Shown: piece after piece, positions 7,383 through 14,233 of the stretch
Position numbering within the stretch: the first letter of the stretch is position 1
Layout of the letters: the number at the start of each line of letters is the position of its first letter
Source of the DNA: an uncultured Methanosarcinales archaeon
GTDB taxonomy: Archaea; Nanobdellota; Nanobdellia; Woesearchaeales; CAIVOO01
Reading direction: 5' to 3'
DNA: 64,000 nt
NCBI GenBank assembly: GCA_964485195.1
Contig: CAZAIK010000005.1
Span: 3,773-67,772 of the forward strand
Made by a program: the position numbers and the translations under genes
The notes under the pieces: model-generated
What the model was told of the DNA's origin: nothing
Databases searched by the model: none
The model's input: the letters and a program-made list of their open reading frames with translations, nothing else

Positions 7383-7934
7383 ATGGTTAACAAAGTAAGG
7401 GAGTTTGGAACCGCAGAATACTCCGCAATGGATGTTGAAAATCCTTTTGATGACATAATTCCCAGAAGAGTGGAGAATATTGCTGACAGGTATGTTCTCC
7501 TGCATCCGGAGCAGAGCATAAAAGTCAGGAATGAAAAGCTGGTAAAGAGCAAAAGACACATATTTCAGGACCCATCAGGCATTGACGTTTTCATCAACAC
7601 GATATTTCCAAACAGGCCCGGCAGGGAGCCCTTAAAATCCTTTACCAAAATGCACGGCATTGAAGATGCTTTCAGGCAAACTGATTCCGGAATTCTTGTC
7701 CGCAAGGAAAAAAAAGTGTACAAAGCAGGCGATGTCAATATTCATTGTTCCCTGATGAAAATGGATGACCACCAGTTTGCAATCCTGTCCCTGGTCGGAG
7801 ACAGCCCGGACAAGGTATCTGAAGTAAGGGACAAGCTCGGCCTCACCCAAAAGAATTTAAACCTGCCAGGCTATCTGATGGGGTATGCCCAAGAAACCAA
7901 GGACTGTGGAGCTGGACACTGTATTAGGCTCTAA
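7383..7934 (+). CDS. Divergent CYTH-like protein
   Basis: DRYV..SIKVR and VRKEKKVYK..VNIH resemble CYTH strands; the ExE motif is not evident. Confidence 0.5.
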   Translation: MVNKVREFGTAEYSAMDVENPFDDIIPRRVENIADRYVLLHPEQSIKVRNEKLVKSKRHIFQDPSGIDVFINTIFPNRPGREPLKSFTKMHGIEDAFRQTDSGILVRKEKKVYKAGDVNIHCSLMKMDDHQFAILSLVGDSPDKVSEVRDKLGLTQKNLNLPGYLMGYAQETKDCGAGHCIRL

Positions 7935-9156
7935 AAAAGCCGAGCTTATTTCTGATTTTGACTCAAAAGCTGCTGAAACGGTAGAGTTATTGTATGCTTA
8001 TTACCTCCAGTTCCAGGACAAGCTCGAGCTTTTCAGCCAGCTAAAAGACCTCATAATAAGTGTTAAGTCACAAATATATGACATACAAAACAGGAAGCTG
8101 AAAGAACTGCCTTCCGGAGAATACAGCAGGCTATACGCAGAAGTTGAAAAAGGCCTGGCAAGGCTTACGGAAGAGCTGGGGAAAGTCAGGGAAATTGTAT
8201 CCGCTGAAAAAGCTGAAGAGGAAAAAGAGGAAAGTAATATCAGGTATCTCCTAAATTTCATAGAAAAAAAGCTTCCTGAAAAAGAAATCAGCCCCAAGCT
8301 TGAAAAAAGCCTGAAAAGGATGAAGGCTTTCCTTGCAAACGCGGAAAGAAAAACCTACGGAGTTCACCATCTTCTAACTCTTCAGTTGAATCTGCTGGAA
8401 GACATAACAGGGGCAAGGCGGGAAGCTGATGCAGAAATAAAAAGCAACAAAAAAAGGCTGGTCAGGACATTAAGAATCCTGGAGCTTGAAATAATGAGGC
8501 TGGGAAAGTATCTCAAGGAGGAATCAGAAATAATAAAGCACCCCCTTGCAAAAGTGCGCAAGTTCAAGGATGACCTGCAGGCATTGAGAAGCCTTGGCCT
8601 GGTATACTCAGAGCCGGAGCTCAACAGGCAGAATCTGGAGATAGTGACCACAAGGATAAGAAGCGATGGAAAAATATTTTACGGAGCCAAGGGGATAGGC
8701 ATAATACACCCTGATGACACAGTTGAAGCGAGATTTGTAAAGGGAGGGGCAGAAAAGCATTCAGAAGTGGTCCAGATGCTTCTTGAGGGAATGGCAGGCG
8801 CAAAACTGGCAGACGAGATAGCAATCAAGGCATACCTCCTTTCCCTTCCCCTCGACAGGATAACCAGGATTGCGGGATACGAGCTCCAGCTTGAATTCAA
8901 CCAAAACAACGAGCTGAAAATAGTGAACATAGATTACGCATCAACAATACTTGAAGTGCAGATGGAAAGAAAGGAACTGCACGGGGAATTCATAAGCATA
9001 TCAAAGAAAGATTTCGAAAGGCTTAACTATGCTGTGTTGTTCTCCATCGACAAAGAGCTTTTAGACCAGGAAAAATTCAAGATGAACACAGAAAAAAGAG
9101 GGAACAAGATACACGTCACAGACAGGAGGATTTATCCTCTGAGAGGTGAAGGATGA
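7885..9156 (+). CDS. Hypothetical coiled-coil protein with globular C-terminal domain
   Basis: 423-aa ORF; N-terminal ~240 aa rich in E/K/L heptads. Confidence 0.75.
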   Translation: MPKKPRTVELDTVLGSKKAELISDFDSKAAETVELLYAYYLQFQDKLELFSQLKDLIISVKSQIYDIQNRKLKELPSGEYSRLYAEVEKGLARLTEELGKVREIVSAEKAEEEKEESNIRYLLNFIEKKLPEKEISPKLEKSLKRMKAFLANAERKTYGVHHLLTLQLNLLEDITGARREADAEIKSNKKRLVRTLRILELEIMRLGKYLKEESEIIKHPLAKVRKFKDDLQALRSLGLVYSEPELNRQNLEIVTTRIRSDGKIFYGAKGIGIIHPDDTVEARFVKGGAEKHSEVVQMLLEGMAGAKLADEIAIKAYLLSLPLDRITRIAGYELQLEFNQNNELKIVNIDYASTILEVQMERKELHGEFISISKKDFERLNYAVLFSIDKELLDQEKFKMNTEKRGNKIHVTDRRIYPLRGEG

Positions 9157-9604: not shown

Positions 9605-10027
9605 ATGGATGCGAAAAAACCCTCAGCATTCTCAGACAGGCAAATTATCCTCGGACTTTCACCCACGACTATGCTCACCCTTCTTGAAGGAGAGAATGTT
9701 GAGGAAAGGGAGAAGGAGAAAGTCATTGGAGAGAATGCATGTTTCTTCAAGGAGGCCGTGCTTGGACTGATATACCTCAGGGAAAGCAATTTTGAGGACC
9801 CCAATTGGGGAAAGAAAGTGAAGAAAGCAAAGATCCTGCAAAGGGCAGTTCCTGACCTGAAAACAATAGAGGACAATGAAGTGATAGACAAACTATCAAG
9901 ATACTCCGCCGGCATTGAAGGGCTGAAAAGCGATTGTTTAAGGTCAGAAGACCTGAAAGGAGAACTGAAAATGATTTACGAATTAATGGCGGCATACGAA
10001 AACAAGGATGTTAAAAGCCCATTTTAG
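9605..10027 (+). CDS. Hypothetical protein
   Basis: 140-aa ORF preceded by TATATAAA. Confidence 0.6.
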   Translation: MDAKKPSAFSDRQIILGLSPTTMLTLLEGENVEEREKEKVIGENACFFKEAVLGLIYLRESNFEDPNWGKKVKKAKILQRAVPDLKTIEDNEVIDKLSRYSAGIEGLKSDCLRSEDLKGELKMIYELMAAYENKDVKSPF

Positions 10028-10157: not shown

Positions 10158-10760
10158 TCAGAAAACCCTCTCCAGGAATGAATTCAGTCTGCTGGTGTTA
10201 ATATCAAACGGCTCCATTCCGTTCAGCATCAGTATGTTTTCCTTGGGAACTCCGCTTTCCATCATCACACAATAAGTGTTGATGTAAGCTTTCTTGAGCT
10301 TTTCAAGAAAGGCATAGTTTACTGTTGATGTGTAAATCCTGGGAACCCTTGCTGAAAAATCATTTTGCTGGTGAAAGTTCTCAACTGCTTCCCCCGGCGG
10401 AAGCCCTACTATGACTATCCCCCTCTCAAGATTGCTGAAGCTCTCAAGATAGTCCATCTCGCCCTCGTATTCTGCCCGCGGCAAAAGCTCTTTCATCGCG
10501 CCCATAAAGGCGATATGGTCCCAAAGCCCTCTCTTCAGCAGCAAATACCCTTCATTTGAGAGAAGGCTGTCAATGACTCTCTCTGCAGAGAAGCTGTTGA
10601 ACTGCTCCCTTGTAAGAACCTTTTTTTCCACTCCGATGTATTCCTTTCCGCCCTCGTGGACTCTTGCCTTCACCCCCTTTTCAGCCAGCATTGATTCAGC
10701 TAATCTTACATATTCTCCCAGGCCCGAGTCAGGCATTCCCATGAATTCCACTGCTTTCAT
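10158..10760 (-). CDS. Nucleotide-kinase-like protein with degenerate P-loop
   Basis: VEFMGMPDSGLGE in place of GxxxxGK[ST]; KRGLWD aligns with the dTMP/dNK kinase DR motif. Confidence 0.6.
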   Translation of the reverse strand: MKAVEFMGMPDSGLGEYVRLAESMLAEKGVKARVHEGGKEYIGVEKKVLTREQFNSFSAERVIDSLLSNEGYLLLKRGLWDHIAFMGAMKELLPRAEYEGEMDYLESFSNLERGIVIVGLPPGEAVENFHQQNDFSARVPRIYTSTVNYAFLEKLKKAYINTYCVMMESGVPKENILMLNGMEPFDINTSRLNSFLERVF

Positions 10761-10831
10761 TGCAAAAGCCCATCTAAGAAACCTCTTTTATTCCTAATGG
10801 GGATTTGTATTTAAAGTTTTCCCTAGAAATA

Positions 10832-11380
10832 CTAGCTGGCTTCGCCTATGGCAATCCAGTAGACTTGCCTGCCTGTCCAACTTTGGTATTGGTGTATTCT
10901 AAAGCTGGATTTGGTAACGTCGCGAACATACATTCCCCAATATTTGTTTCCAGTATTTTCACTATTCGTTTCAAAATCATTCCAGTTATTAGAATTGCTA
11001 ATTCCAAAAGGGTTTGATCTATGGTATATCTTAATCAAAGGAATGCTCCCAAAAGTATAACCCATATTCACGGTATAGGTTGACTGCTTCCAATATTGTA
11101 GCCACTAACACTATAACTCTGGGAGGTGTTGAAAGGAACACCTGGCCTGTTGTTGTAAAAACAGGAACATTAACTACAACAGGAGGGGGACCTTACCAGG
11201 AAAAACATAATCACCACCGCCAGCATCAGCGCCGAAAGTCCCAGCCCCTACGCTCTCAGCAGAATGACCAGGATTAGGGACTGAGGACTGGGCAAAAGAA
11301 AAAGTAATAATAAAGAGAACACAAACAAGTGCTATGACAAAATAAAGATGCCTCTTTTCAATGTTTATCTCTATCTTCAT
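10832..11380 (-). pseudogene. Membrane-anchored surface/fibre-like protein gene interrupted by an internal inversion (11078-11193)
   Basis: N-part (-) MKIEINIEK..TM..PNPGH..DYVFPG; middle (+) LTASN..TITLGGVERNTWP..GGGP; C-part (-) VNMGYTF..YWIAIG; flipping gives one 182-aa ORF. Confidence 0.8.
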
Positions 11381-11462
11381 ATCTTAAGACTTCTATTAGC
11401 ACATTGCCTTATTTAAGCTTTTTCAAAATATTTAAAAATAAGTTAATTAAAAGGGTTTTTAA

Positions 11463-11616
11463 GGGGCTGTAGGGTAGCTTGGCCAGCGCAAATCCAGGAT
11501 TTGCTGGATTGCTTTGGAGCAATTATCCTCTCCGCCCGGGGCGCGGGTGACCCCGGTTCAAACGCTGTTGCATTCCCAAAAAAAGGGAATGCTCGCTGAA
11601 AGTCCGGGCAGCCCCA
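11463..11616 (+). tRNA. tRNA-Pro(GGG) with two non-canonical introns (11483-11522 at 19/20; 11563-11602 at 59/60)
   Basis: Acceptor GGGGCTG/CAGCCCC; both 40-nt inserts form BHB motifs (central helices GCTT/GAGC and TTCA/TGAA). Confidence 0.9.
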
Positions 11617-11663
11617 TTTCAAAATCAAAAAAACAAAAGAAATCCAGTTAAAACGCCAGAGAA

Positions 11664-11828
11664 TTACTCCTCTTCCTCTTCAAAAAGGTTTTCATATTCC
11701 TCTTCAAATTCCTTTTCAGTGATCACTCCTTTTTTTATCAGCAGCTCTATCAAAGCGTCAATCTTGTCGTCTGCATAATCCGCTATTTCCCCAGAACTCA
11801 GTTCCTCTTCATTAATGTCTTCTTCCAT
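11664..11828 (-). CDS. Small acidic protein (54 aa)
   Basis: MEEDINEEELSSGEIADYADDKIDALIELLIKKGVITEKEFEEE; AGGAGG RBS; below the ORF-track cutoff. Confidence 0.75.
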   Translation of the reverse strand: MEEDINEEELSSGEIADYADDKIDALIELLIKKGVITEKEFEEEYENLFEEEEE

Positions 11829-11840
11829 CTTAAAACCTCC

Positions 11841-12317
11841 TTATCTTTTCTTTTTTCTTCTGTGCCAGGCTCTTTTCTCGCTTCTTCCTCTTCTCCCAGA
11901 AGGCTCTGACGAGAAAATGTCCAAGTATCCCACAAGCACCACAATGCCAAACACGACAAAGTACAATATCATCTCAAGAACGTTAATAACTGGCATGAAA
12001 CCCCCTATTACTGAGCTGAATATTCCGATTATGTTGAATATGAATATGACAACAAGAACTCCTCCCGCCCCGTTCAGCAAGGGGGCGGGCAGGTTGAACG
12101 GAAATGCCAGCTCCTCTATTATTCCCGATACCAGGAACAGGACTCCTATTATTATCAGGAGAATAAGATTGCTGTTGATGAAACTCACCACGCCTCCAAG
12201 CACTGGGATGTCAAAAAAGCTCACCAGAAGATTGAGTACTGCAACCAGCGCCACAAGCACTATGAGGCCTATTATCTTTGACATTACGTGTCCGAGTATT
12301 GATTTTCCGCGGGCCAT
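11841..12317 (-). CDS. Hypothetical membrane protein (about 4 TM)
   Basis: Hydrophobic segments and a basic C-tail. Confidence 0.75.
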   Translation of the reverse strand: MARGKSILGHVMSKIIGLIVLVALVAVLNLLVSFFDIPVLGGVVSFINSNLILLIIIGVLFLVSGIIEELAFPFNLPAPLLNGAGGVLVVIFIFNIIGIFSSVIGGFMPVINVLEMILYFVVFGIVVLVGYLDIFSSEPSGRRGRSEKRAWHRRKKKR

Positions 12318-12511: not shown

Positions 12512-14233
12512 ATGGCAGACAGGAAAAACAGCTGGGAGGATGAAAAAAAGAAGTTCTGGCACAGCTCTTCCCACATACTGGCGCAGGCTGTCAAAAGGCT
12601 TTTTCCAGACGCTATTCCTACTATAGGCCCTGCGACAGATGAAGGATTTTACTATGATTTTGACTTCAGGCCTTTCACCCAGGAAGACCTGGAAAGGATT
12701 GAGGAGGAAATGAAGAAGATAATCAAGGAGGATATCCCAATCAAAAGGGTGGAGCTGACAAAGGCAGAGGCAAAAAAGCAATTCAAGGACAACCCTTACA
12801 AAATTGAGCTTATCGACGAGGCAGAGGGAAAGGTTTCTGCATACAGGCAGGGGGAATTCATTGACTTGTGCAAAGGGCCCCACATAGAGTCAACAGGAAA
12901 GGCAAAAGCCGTCAAAGTTTTGAAAAGCTCAGGGGCATACTGGAGAGGCGATTCTAAGAACAAGCAGCTGCAGAGGATTTACGGAATATCCTTCCCCGAG
13001 AAAAAACAGTTAAGGGAATACCTGTTCAAGCTGGAAGAAGCGGAAAAAAGGGACCACAGAAAACTTGGAAGAGAGCTTGACCTGTACAGCTTTCACGAGG
13101 AAGCCCCGGGAATGGTTTTCACGCACCCGAATGGAATGGTAATCTGGAACCAACTGCTTGACTTCTGGAGGGAAGAGCACAGGAACGCAGGCTACAAGGA
13201 AATCAAAACACCAATAATCCTTAACAAGGAATTGTGGAAAAGGTCAGGCCACTGGGAACATTACAAGGAGGATATGTATTTCATAAAAATAGATGAAGCT
13301 GATTTTGCCATAAAACCGATGAACTGCCCCGGGGGAATGCTGGTATACAAAACAAAATCCCACTCTTACAGGGACTTTCCATTAAGAACTGCAGAGATAG
13401 GACTGGTGCACAGGCACGAGTTAAGCGGTGTACTGTCAGGATTGTTCAGGGTAAGGAGTTTTCATCAGGATGATGCCCATATTTATGTAACCAGGGAACA
13501 GCTTGAAACAGAACTGAAAAATGTAATTAAACTTGTTAATAAGATATATGGCGCATTTGGCTTTGAATATCACGTCGAGCTTTCCACAAAGCCTGAAAAG
13601 GCGATGGGAGACAGCAAAACGTGGGAGATTGCTGAGAGCACCCTGCAAAAGGTTCTTGAAGACATGAAAATAAAATTCAAGATAAATCCAGGGGACGGGG
13701 CATTTTACGGGCCCAAGATTGACTTTCACATAAAGGACGCAATCGGAAGGACCTGGCAGTGCGGGACACTCCAGCTGGACTTCCAGATGCCTGAAAGGTT
13801 TGACCTCACTTATGACGGGGCTGACAACAAGAAGCACAGGCCCACTATGCTTCACAGGACTCTCTACGGATCTATAGAACGGTTCATAGGGATATTGGTG
13901 GAGCATTACGCAGGCAAGTTCCCCTTGTGGCTTTCGCCTGTTCAGGTGATAATACTTCCCATTGCTGACAGGCACGCAGATTATGCAAGGGGCGTGAAGA
14001 AAAAACTGTTTGATTCTGGAATAAGGGTTGAGCTGGATGACAGGACAGAAACAACTTCCAAGAAAGTGAGGGATGCGGAATTGCAGAAGATAAATTACAT
14101 CCTTGTTGTGGGGGACAGGGAAGAAAAGAACAGGACAGTTAATGTGAGGACAAGAAACAACGAAGTTCTCGGGGAGAAAAAGACAGATGAATTCCTTAAG
14201 AGCCTGAAGAAAGAGATTGAGGAGAAGAAGTGA
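12512..14233 (+). CDS. thrS: Threonyl-tRNA synthetase, bacterial type, no TGS domain
   Basis: HSSSH and DLCKGPH editing motifs, KPMNCPG, GAFYGPKIDF. Confidence 0.97.
   Translation: MADRKNSWEDEKKKFWHSSSHILAQAVKRLFPDAIPTIGPATDEGFYYDFDFRPFTQEDLERIEEEMKKIIKEDIPIKRVELTKAEAKKQFKDNPYKIELIDEAEGKVSAYRQGEFIDLCKGPHIESTGKAKAVKVLKSSGAYWRGDSKNKQLQRIYGISFPEKKQLREYLFKLEEAEKRDHRKLGRELDLYSFHEEAPGMVFTHPNGMVIWNQLLDFWREEHRNAGYKEIKTPIILNKELWKRSGHWEHYKEDMYFIKIDEADFAIKPMNCPGGMLVYKTKSHSYRDFPLRTAEIGLVHRHELSGVLSGLFRVRSFHQDDAHIYVTREQLETELKNVIKLVNKIYGAFGFEYHVELSTKPEKAMGDSKTWEIAESTLQKVLEDMKIKFKINPGDGAFYGPKIDFHIKDAIGRTWQCGTLQLDFQMPERFDLTYDGADNKKHRPTMLHRTLYGSIERFIGILVEHYAGKFPLWLSPVQVIILPIADRHADYARGVKKKLFDSGIRVELDDRTETTSKKVRDAELQKINYILVVGDREEKNRTVNVRTRNNEVLGEKKTDEFLKSLKKEIEEKK

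Follow-up and report, generated by a model that had tools for sequence, protein, structure and literature searches.

The locus at 10832–11380 of the window (the 64,000-nucleotide stretch of DNA analysed here, which lies on contig C5 of its genome) raised the question of why a single surface-fibre gene of a microbial-mat archaeon should lie in three pieces on alternating strands, and whether this arrangement represents a reversible switch, a lasting lesion or an artefact. The genome is a metagenome bin of 1.13 Mb in 32 contigs and is 99.5% complete by marker genes; by the source names of the homologues it belongs among Candidatus Woesearchaeota. The first-pass annotation of the window had described two minus-strand fragments around a plus-strand fragment, had stated that re-inverting 11078–11193 gives one 549-nt ORF with both junctions in frame, and had placed the breakpoints on TA dinucleotides inside imperfect inverted repeats. 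All three observations were reproduced. A minus-strand ORF of 68 aa (11380..11174) and a minus-strand ORF of 79 aa (11071..10832) flank a plus-strand stretch between 11080 and 11193 that is open for 38 codons. Reverse-complementing 11078–11193 by script produced an uninterrupted minus-strand ORF between 11380 and 10832 (549 nt, 182 codons and a stop), without any other lesion; a 116-bp segment is thus reversed inside one gene. Inverting 11077–11194 or 11076–11195 instead gave the identical ORF, as the TA dinucleotide at each end makes the breakpoint ambiguous and the three choices equivalent, and the inverted length is accordingly 116–120 bp. The features of the locus, read from the start of the gene, are as follows.

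11194–11380, minus strand: N-terminal piece (codons 1–62), with the start codon, a hydrophobic signal/anchor helix, the PNPGHS motif and the GTFG...GDYVFPG stalk start
11198–11361, minus strand: 164-nt tract, 99.4% identical (one mismatch) to positions 35–198 of contig C20 of the same genome, with unrelated flanks on both sides
11190–11197: right junction, with the short repeat ACCTTACC (reverse complement GGTAAGGT) and the breakpoint within the TA at 11194–11195
11078–11193, plus strand: inverted segment, of which 11080–11193 codes for the neck (TASNIVATNTITLGGVERNTWP) and for the head's first strand (KTGTLTTTGGGP)
11072–11080: left junction, with the short repeat GGTATAGGT and the breakpoint within the TA at 11076–11077
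10832–11077, minus strand: C-terminal piece, with most of the head domain (PLIKIY, DFETNSEN, YWIAIGEAS), the stop codon and weak Pfam matches

In the arrangement present, the N-terminal frame continues into the inverted piece and reaches a stop at 11174, giving a 68-aa stub that consists of the anchor, the stalk start and six foreign residues. The C-terminal piece is without a signal peptide and its sole possible start is an internal GTG at 11071. The inversion extends from just past the FPG that is conserved in the stalk as far as the head's first strand; it lies wholly within 11078–11193 and leaves the sequence upstream of the 11380 start untouched. Read in the gene's own frame the flipped segment contains stops, and a plus-strand ORF of 65 codons runs through it (11080–11277). 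Gene callers would report a lesion of this type as three unrelated small ORFs.

Contiguous homologues of the restored 182-aa protein, for which the first-pass annotation had proposed a search, were found. P0001 (L002 8..661), encoded on contig C16 of a genome of the same family (G003), is intact, is 217 aa in length and contains all three parts in order; local BLASTP aligned the restored product to it at E 8e-28 over residues 1–180, with all three pieces included. The restored product was the query in local BLAST, and natural intact homologues stood in for it elsewhere. A six-frame search of the whole genome with the L002 protein as query matched C5 on the minus, plus and minus strands in turn (query ranges 3–48, 102–135 and 139–215). 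By six-frame search the plus-strand piece was also 64% identical to residues 80–112 of P0004 (E 3.4e-7 per genome). P0004 reads FPDNL...ITASNITSTNTITLGGVARSTWP on one strand, unbroken through the position of the right junction, and P0007, P0008 and P0012 read G-x-T...VTF...PLIKIY unbroken through that of the left junction. The left-junction reading was taken from these three proteins, which were among the six obtained at E 0.001 or better in an exhaustive search of 1.84 billion representatives with the head domain; the other matches (P0009–P0011) were short multi-stretch matches in long proteins. The N-terminal piece has homologues in the N-termini of P0001 and P0004 and, within the genome itself, in those of the paralogues on C2, C9 and C20; the C2 paralogue (C2:81920–82753, an open frame of 278 residues) has the same N-terminus followed by ITLGNVRKTEWP. 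As the plus-strand piece is homologous to the family and the three pieces are colinear on the strands −, +, −, the inversion is more than a chance arrangement of reading frames; judged from these alignments, the restored order is the natural order.

No near-identical orthologue in the ancestral orientation was found, so the ancestral state was read from family-level homologues of 31–64% identity, in which the uninverted order was seen. In G001, a genome of the same genus, no orthologue was found: a DNA search matched tRNA-like stretches only, and the restored product had a best match of only E 0.27 at the G001 locus beside the matching tRNA-like site. A scan of metagenome contigs with the head piece gave 48 pattern matches, one of which was a distant relative (36% identity, E 8e-5) and none a near-identical copy in either orientation. 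By re-inversion and comparison with the colinear homologues the in-place exchange was exact, without gain or loss of bases, at a resolution at which small in-frame indels at the junctions are possible.

The inverted form was present in the DNA of two samples from one study, represented by Logan contigs (k=31): X1, possibly the source sample, and X2, from another sample and library. In X1 one contig of 2006 nt (record 1, depth 8.9) covered 10300–11227, in X2 one contig of 333 nt (record 11, depth 4.9, about 4–5x) covered 11024–11356, and each ran through both junctions, with flanks of over 31 letters on each side. Both covering runs had the inverted form (2/2) and neither had the restored form (0/2); no joint or loose end fitted the restored form, contigs of this type dropping rare variants. 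At these contig depths, about 9x in X1 and 4–5x in X2, a minority of the restored orientation may have gone unseen. A third run of the study, X3, contained next to none of the stretch, only 18–21-nt pieces of an unrelated contig, and was uninformative. Loose ends at 11198 and 11361 matched the C20 paralogue, not the alternative orientation, and word depth was doubled across the tract.

The contigs also differed from the window at two positions, both at low depth. At 11083 the X2 contig had T in place of A (Thr to Ser in the inverted neck piece), and at 10948 the contigs of both runs had G against T in the window, a change of Asn to His in the head. Each of the two differences is non-synonymous and falls within the broken gene. 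Slightly different haplotypes may carry the same inversion, and single differences at a depth under 5 may be errors.

The locus is probably best explained by a single spontaneous in-place inversion of 116–120 bp which inactivated one paralogue of a multi-copy Woesearchaeota surface-fibre family. A recent knockout of a surface fibre/adhesin-like gene had been one of the options in the first-pass annotation, and it is the one that gained support: intact colinear homologues exist, and a homologue with 43% identity has a head whose model resembles H-lectins and phage fibre tips (see below). After the inversion the N-terminal frame would meet a stop after 68 codons, and the head would be left without a promoter, a signal peptide or an evident start. 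Since other copies of the family remain in the genome, loss of the window copy should be tolerable. The absence of further lesions shows only that the event is recent on the scale of neutral mutation, which fits a knockout and a reversible OFF state alike.

The junctions show microhomology, with a TA overlap at both ends, GGTA/TACC outside and AGGT/ACCT inside. A replication or repair error could have used 2–4 nt of this microhomology at each end, the nascent strand switching to the opposite strand and then returning (an inter-strand template switch). Alternatively, the event could have been tied to recombination that copied 164 nt between the window gene and its C20 paralogue. A site-specific recombinase would be unnecessary.

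Inter-strand template switching is the basis of the Ripley model, and Schofield, Agbunag and Miller reportedly described micro-inversion or illegitimate recombination between short inverted repeats in 1992. The closest known kind of event is a spontaneous micro-inversion, either between short inverted repeats or by template switching. In the four-point model of Loytynoja and Goldman, as far as it is set out in the part of the paper used here (PMC5453318), template switching can invert a fragment in place. The window inversion is like such template-switch micro-inversions in being an exact in-place reverse complement with no gain or loss. As in those, a few bases are complementary at each switch point and an enzyme-specific site is lacking, and the contigs show one orientation. 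Unlike the typical case, one of its breakpoints lies 3 nt from the end of the 164-nt tract that it shares with a paralogue, a hint that recombination may have been involved in its origin. Spacer inversions inside yeast coding genes, in the sections of Abraham and Hazkani-Covo drawn on here (PMC8604942), have arms of >9 bp and spacers of 2–5 bp and recode one or two residues, whereas the window inversion has arms of 4 nt and a flipped piece of 116 nt, which places it at the short-arm, long-spacer extreme of these events, and would destroy its gene.

The shared tract ends 3 nt from the right breakpoint. From its identity to C20 it is a probable gene-conversion or recombination tract, and by a rough estimate the chance of a tract end falling this close to the breakpoint in a 549-nt gene is a few per cent. 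This proximity suggests that the inversion and the recombination or gene conversion between the paralogues may belong together; another possibility is that exchanges favour the FPG module boundary. The assignment of the upstream region to C5 and not to C20 rests on the original assembler, the tract being longer than the contig word size. This caveat spares the junctions, because they lie outside the tract and inside single contigs.

On C20, the minus strand of positions 1–217 encodes a second family member, of which codons 7–61 are 99.4% identical in DNA to the window's gene and which differs from it in start, promoter side and continuation (FPSNILVLGNAKG). The C20 contig of the bin stops 34 nt past the common tract, and a Logan contig of X1 extends at least 255 nt more. 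Around a 100-N gap further along (C20:1146–1484) there are exact 55-nt repeats (1146–1200 is identical to 1322–1376, and 1301–1355 to 1430–1484). This region, which has a 75% identical relative on C1 (103959–104263), is either a repeat array or a scaffolding artefact.

A programmed reversible inversion within the gene is unlikely. Under that reading the gene would alternate between ON (intact fibre) and OFF (68-aa stub) as phase variation of a host-attachment protein, and both samples would be mostly OFF. The restored gene is exactly in frame across the two junctions and carries no secondary lesions, the three pieces are still free of stops and frameshifts, which fits a reversible OFF as well as a very recent knockout, and the target is a surface-fibre gene, surface-protein genes being the usual targets of phase variation. 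Intragenic invertons were described in bacteria and one archaeon by Chanin et al. (PMC10028968); in the portion of that work considered here they include examples with premature stops, one of them in an archaeon, and are characterised by both orientations coexisting in reads, by einverted-detectable repeats and by recombinase-mediated flipping. The contigs of the two covering runs, however, showed the inverted orientation only, with no branch at either junction.

The repeats at the junctions bear on the same question. An imperfect inverted repeat of 8–9 nt spans both junctions: alignment of GGTATAGGT with GGTAAGGT gave 4+4 complementary nt with a one-base indel (local score 6), a mildly unusual match, since among 20,000 pairs of positions drawn at random from the genome with a spacing of 116 nt, 2.8% equalled or bettered it (p about 0.03). 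These arms compare with an 11-nt repeat in one published inverton, again from the part of the source used (PMC10028968), and a repeat search found no longer repeats at the junctions. The first-pass annotation had suggested looking for the junction motif elsewhere; the inverted motif pair within 1.5 kb occurred once in the 1.13 Mb, at the present locus (0.6 expected from 17 + 14 single sites). Additionally, 121 genomes of the order were searched for adjacent opposite-strand pieces, with limited sensitivity for a 33-residue piece; 12 of these had family matches (E 0.05 or better) and only the present genome had the arrangement.

A tyrosine recombinase gene is present in the genome, which leaves a candidate enzyme for such flipping, but this single PF00589 (Phage_integrase) match lies on another contig, C13, and scores as the archaeal XerA equivalog (230 bits, cut-off 220), a housekeeping enzyme. 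PF00239 (Resolvase), the family of the serine invertases, had 0 matches in the whole genome (99.5% complete, 32 contigs). The remark in the first-pass annotation that no invertase is visible in the window is in line with these genome-wide results, and its suggestion of a recombinase elsewhere led to the XerA equivalog only.

The window inversion is like intragenic invertons in lying inside one gene, in the premature stop of the non-functional orientation and in affecting a cell-surface gene, and is unlike them, as they are presented in the part of the source drawn on, in its one orientation in contigs, its minimal repeat and the lack of any invertase found. It resembles premature-stop invertons in outcome and departs from them in three defining features, namely repeat size (about 10 nt or more), invertase and recurrence; the fourth, coexistence of the two orientations, was assessed on contigs. 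With the inverted form in 2/2 covering runs, minimal repeats, no dedicated invertase and no recurrence, the invertible ON/OFF switch put forward by the first-pass annotation found no positive support. It is improbable that a DPANN archaeon here uses a repeat of about 9 nt, flipped by a XerA-type recombinase or an unknown enzyme, to turn a fibre on and off, with mat populations nearly all OFF. Under that reading the unbroken frames of the three pieces would reflect selection for reversibility. If both orientations were to turn up in raw reads, this would be among the first phase-variable loci in DPANN archaea.

Fibre or pilus tips are switched by site-specific inversion in the phage Mu G segment (Gin), the P1 C segment (Cin) and the plasmid R64 shufflon (Rci). 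These systems swap alternative C-terminal cassettes between long specific sites and have a linked recombinase gene. The window locus is like them in that DNA inversion changes a fibre gene, here one with a putative receptor-binding role, beyond an N-terminal part that stays constant. Unlike them, it has no alternative cassette, since the flipped segment has stops in the gene's frame, and it has no such sites or recombinase gene.

It is very doubtful that the rearranged locus is still used, for example through a function of its own for the 68-aa anchored stub or for the plus-strand 65-codon ORF (11080–11277). Both small ORFs are open and the region upstream of the 11380 start is unaffected by the inversion, but no homologue was found with a short form ending at that point, the short members P0007 and P0012 (146–147 aa) keep a complete head, and the plus-strand ORF is fully accounted for as inverted coding sequence plus read-through into antisense. 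It is very unlikely indeed that the gene is truly intact and that the inversion stems from a chimeric read, a fold-back during amplification or a mistake of the assembler, and the chimera option of the first-pass annotation is contradicted: the genome is a 32-contig metagenome bin and its assembly graph is tangled where the 164-nt repeat shared with C20 abuts the right junction and C20 ends, but single Logan contigs from two samples and libraries (depths 8.9 and 4.9, the X2 copy with its own letter at 11083) bridge both junctions, so that every junction 31-mer is present in reads, the junctions fall outside the common tract, and the flanking repeats of 9 nt or less are far under any assembler word size.

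The gene that the single spontaneous inversion probably inactivated belongs to a family with a shared architecture. Its members have an N-terminal part with EKRHLYF, a hydrophobic helix and a (PNP)GHS motif, followed by the stalk start GTFG...F-P-(G/D/N)-N-L and, usually, by the neck N-(L/I)-T-L-G-G-x-x-R-x-x-W-P. The heads vary: the window gene has the YWIAIG head, those of P0002, P0004 and P0005 are cysteine-rich, and P0003 has two collagen-IV NC1 domains. On this pattern, the intact window gene would encode, in order, a signal/anchor helix with the GHS motif, a short stalk, the neck LGGxxRxxWP and a C-terminal H-lectin-like head. Family copies were found on C5, C20, C9 and C2 of the present genome, and there were seven matches in G001 and four in G003. 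P0003 (340 aa, an ENA metagenome protein) combines an archaeal N-terminus and the neck LGGVSKDIWP with its two NC1 domains (Pfam C4, E 3.7e-56), a head that is unexpected for a DPANN-type surface fibre.

The first-pass annotation had noted a resemblance of the head to gp53-like and H-lectin domains, which gained support at the level of fold and fell short of the Pfam thresholds. The head piece of the window, scored without its first strand, which sits in the inverted segment, matched Gp53-like_C (PF21882) at E 0.0093 with 16.9 bits, below the cut-off of 24.9, and H_lectin (PF09458) at E 0.011 with 16.3 bits, below the cut-off of 24. P0001 scored 14 bits for H_lectin, and its residues 93–122, which are homologous to the inverted segment, scored 25.0 bits for Phage_spike (PF18715), below the cut-off of 28.2. 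The 38-aa plus-strand piece of the window had no Phage_spike match in Pfam. None of P0001, P0004, P0012 and the two window pieces matched a PHROGs family, and a sequence profile search of the PDB (alignment A2) returned only RuvC, at a chance-level E of 1.7.

An AlphaFold2 model was made of the intact homologue P0012, whose head is 43% identical to that of the window, from a 7-row alignment. The mean pLDDT was 71.6, with the head mostly at 84–93 and one loop at 42–55. Foldseek matched the model to H-lectins (rows 1–3, 5, 9, 11 and 13) and to phage or pyocin fibre tips (rows 4, 6–8 and 14–19) at E 2e-3 to 6e-2; VIA gave Z 5.4–7.8 over 68–83 residues at an rmsd of 2.2–4.3, a range rated middling by the tool. 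The matches included Helix agglutinins, discoidin I/II, SLL-2, AP22 gp53, phage tailspike and fibre tips and R-pyocin fibres. The P0012 head model aligns with H-type lectins (Helix pomatia/aspersa agglutinin and discoidin I/II) and with the fibre tips of Acinetobacter phage AP22 gp53 (4mtm) and R2 pyocin (6cl6), and these two groups occupy the top of both lists. In contrast to these, the window head scores under the gathering cut-offs in Pfam; moreover, what was modelled is a homologue with 43% identity, and a Z below 8 can reflect a common beta-sandwich. The head probably serves as a tip that binds sugars and attaches to cells. Attachment to host cells, a putative role, would fit this architecture and general views on DPANN archaea, as expressed in the portions of the literature drawn on here.

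Analysis of the neighbourhood revealed a tRNA-like sequence on the plus strand at 11463–11616, with acceptor ends GGGGCTG ... CAGCCCC and an apparently interrupted T arm (CCCCGGTTCAAA ... TCCGGG). This organisation would point to a tRNA gene interrupted by more than a single intron. The sequence was called neither by ARAGORN (with and without the intron option) nor by Rfam, and an ARAGORN intron run on 11400–11700 was empty; over the first 72 nt, the sequence shares 88% identity with G001, the genome of the same genus. The neighbouring ORFs at 10158–10760 (minus strand), 7885–9156 (plus strand), 9605–10027 (plus strand) and 11841–12317 (minus strand), of 140–423 aa, had no Pfam family at E 0.001 or better. 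The only neighbours that could be named were a MazG-like ORF, under the cut-off, and threonyl-tRNA synthetase (12512–14233). A promoter and terminator scan gave 0 sites of each with bacterial-type models, which are uninformative for an archaeon.

As a mutation, the inversion represents a known though rare type of lesion, the exact micro-inversion with microhomology, in a clean natural form. It shows that sequence alone can reveal lesions of this type and that independent contigs can be used to check them. Of more biological interest is the gene family, through which small-genome, probably host-dependent archaea carry several modular fibres that combine a constant anchor and neck with exchangeable heads (H-lectin-like, cysteine-rich or collagen-IV-NC1-like). 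The near-identical N-terminal tracts between paralogues, together with the exchangeable heads, suggest a rapid turnover of attachment specificities by the gain, exchange and loss of copies, of which the broken copy would be one snapshot.
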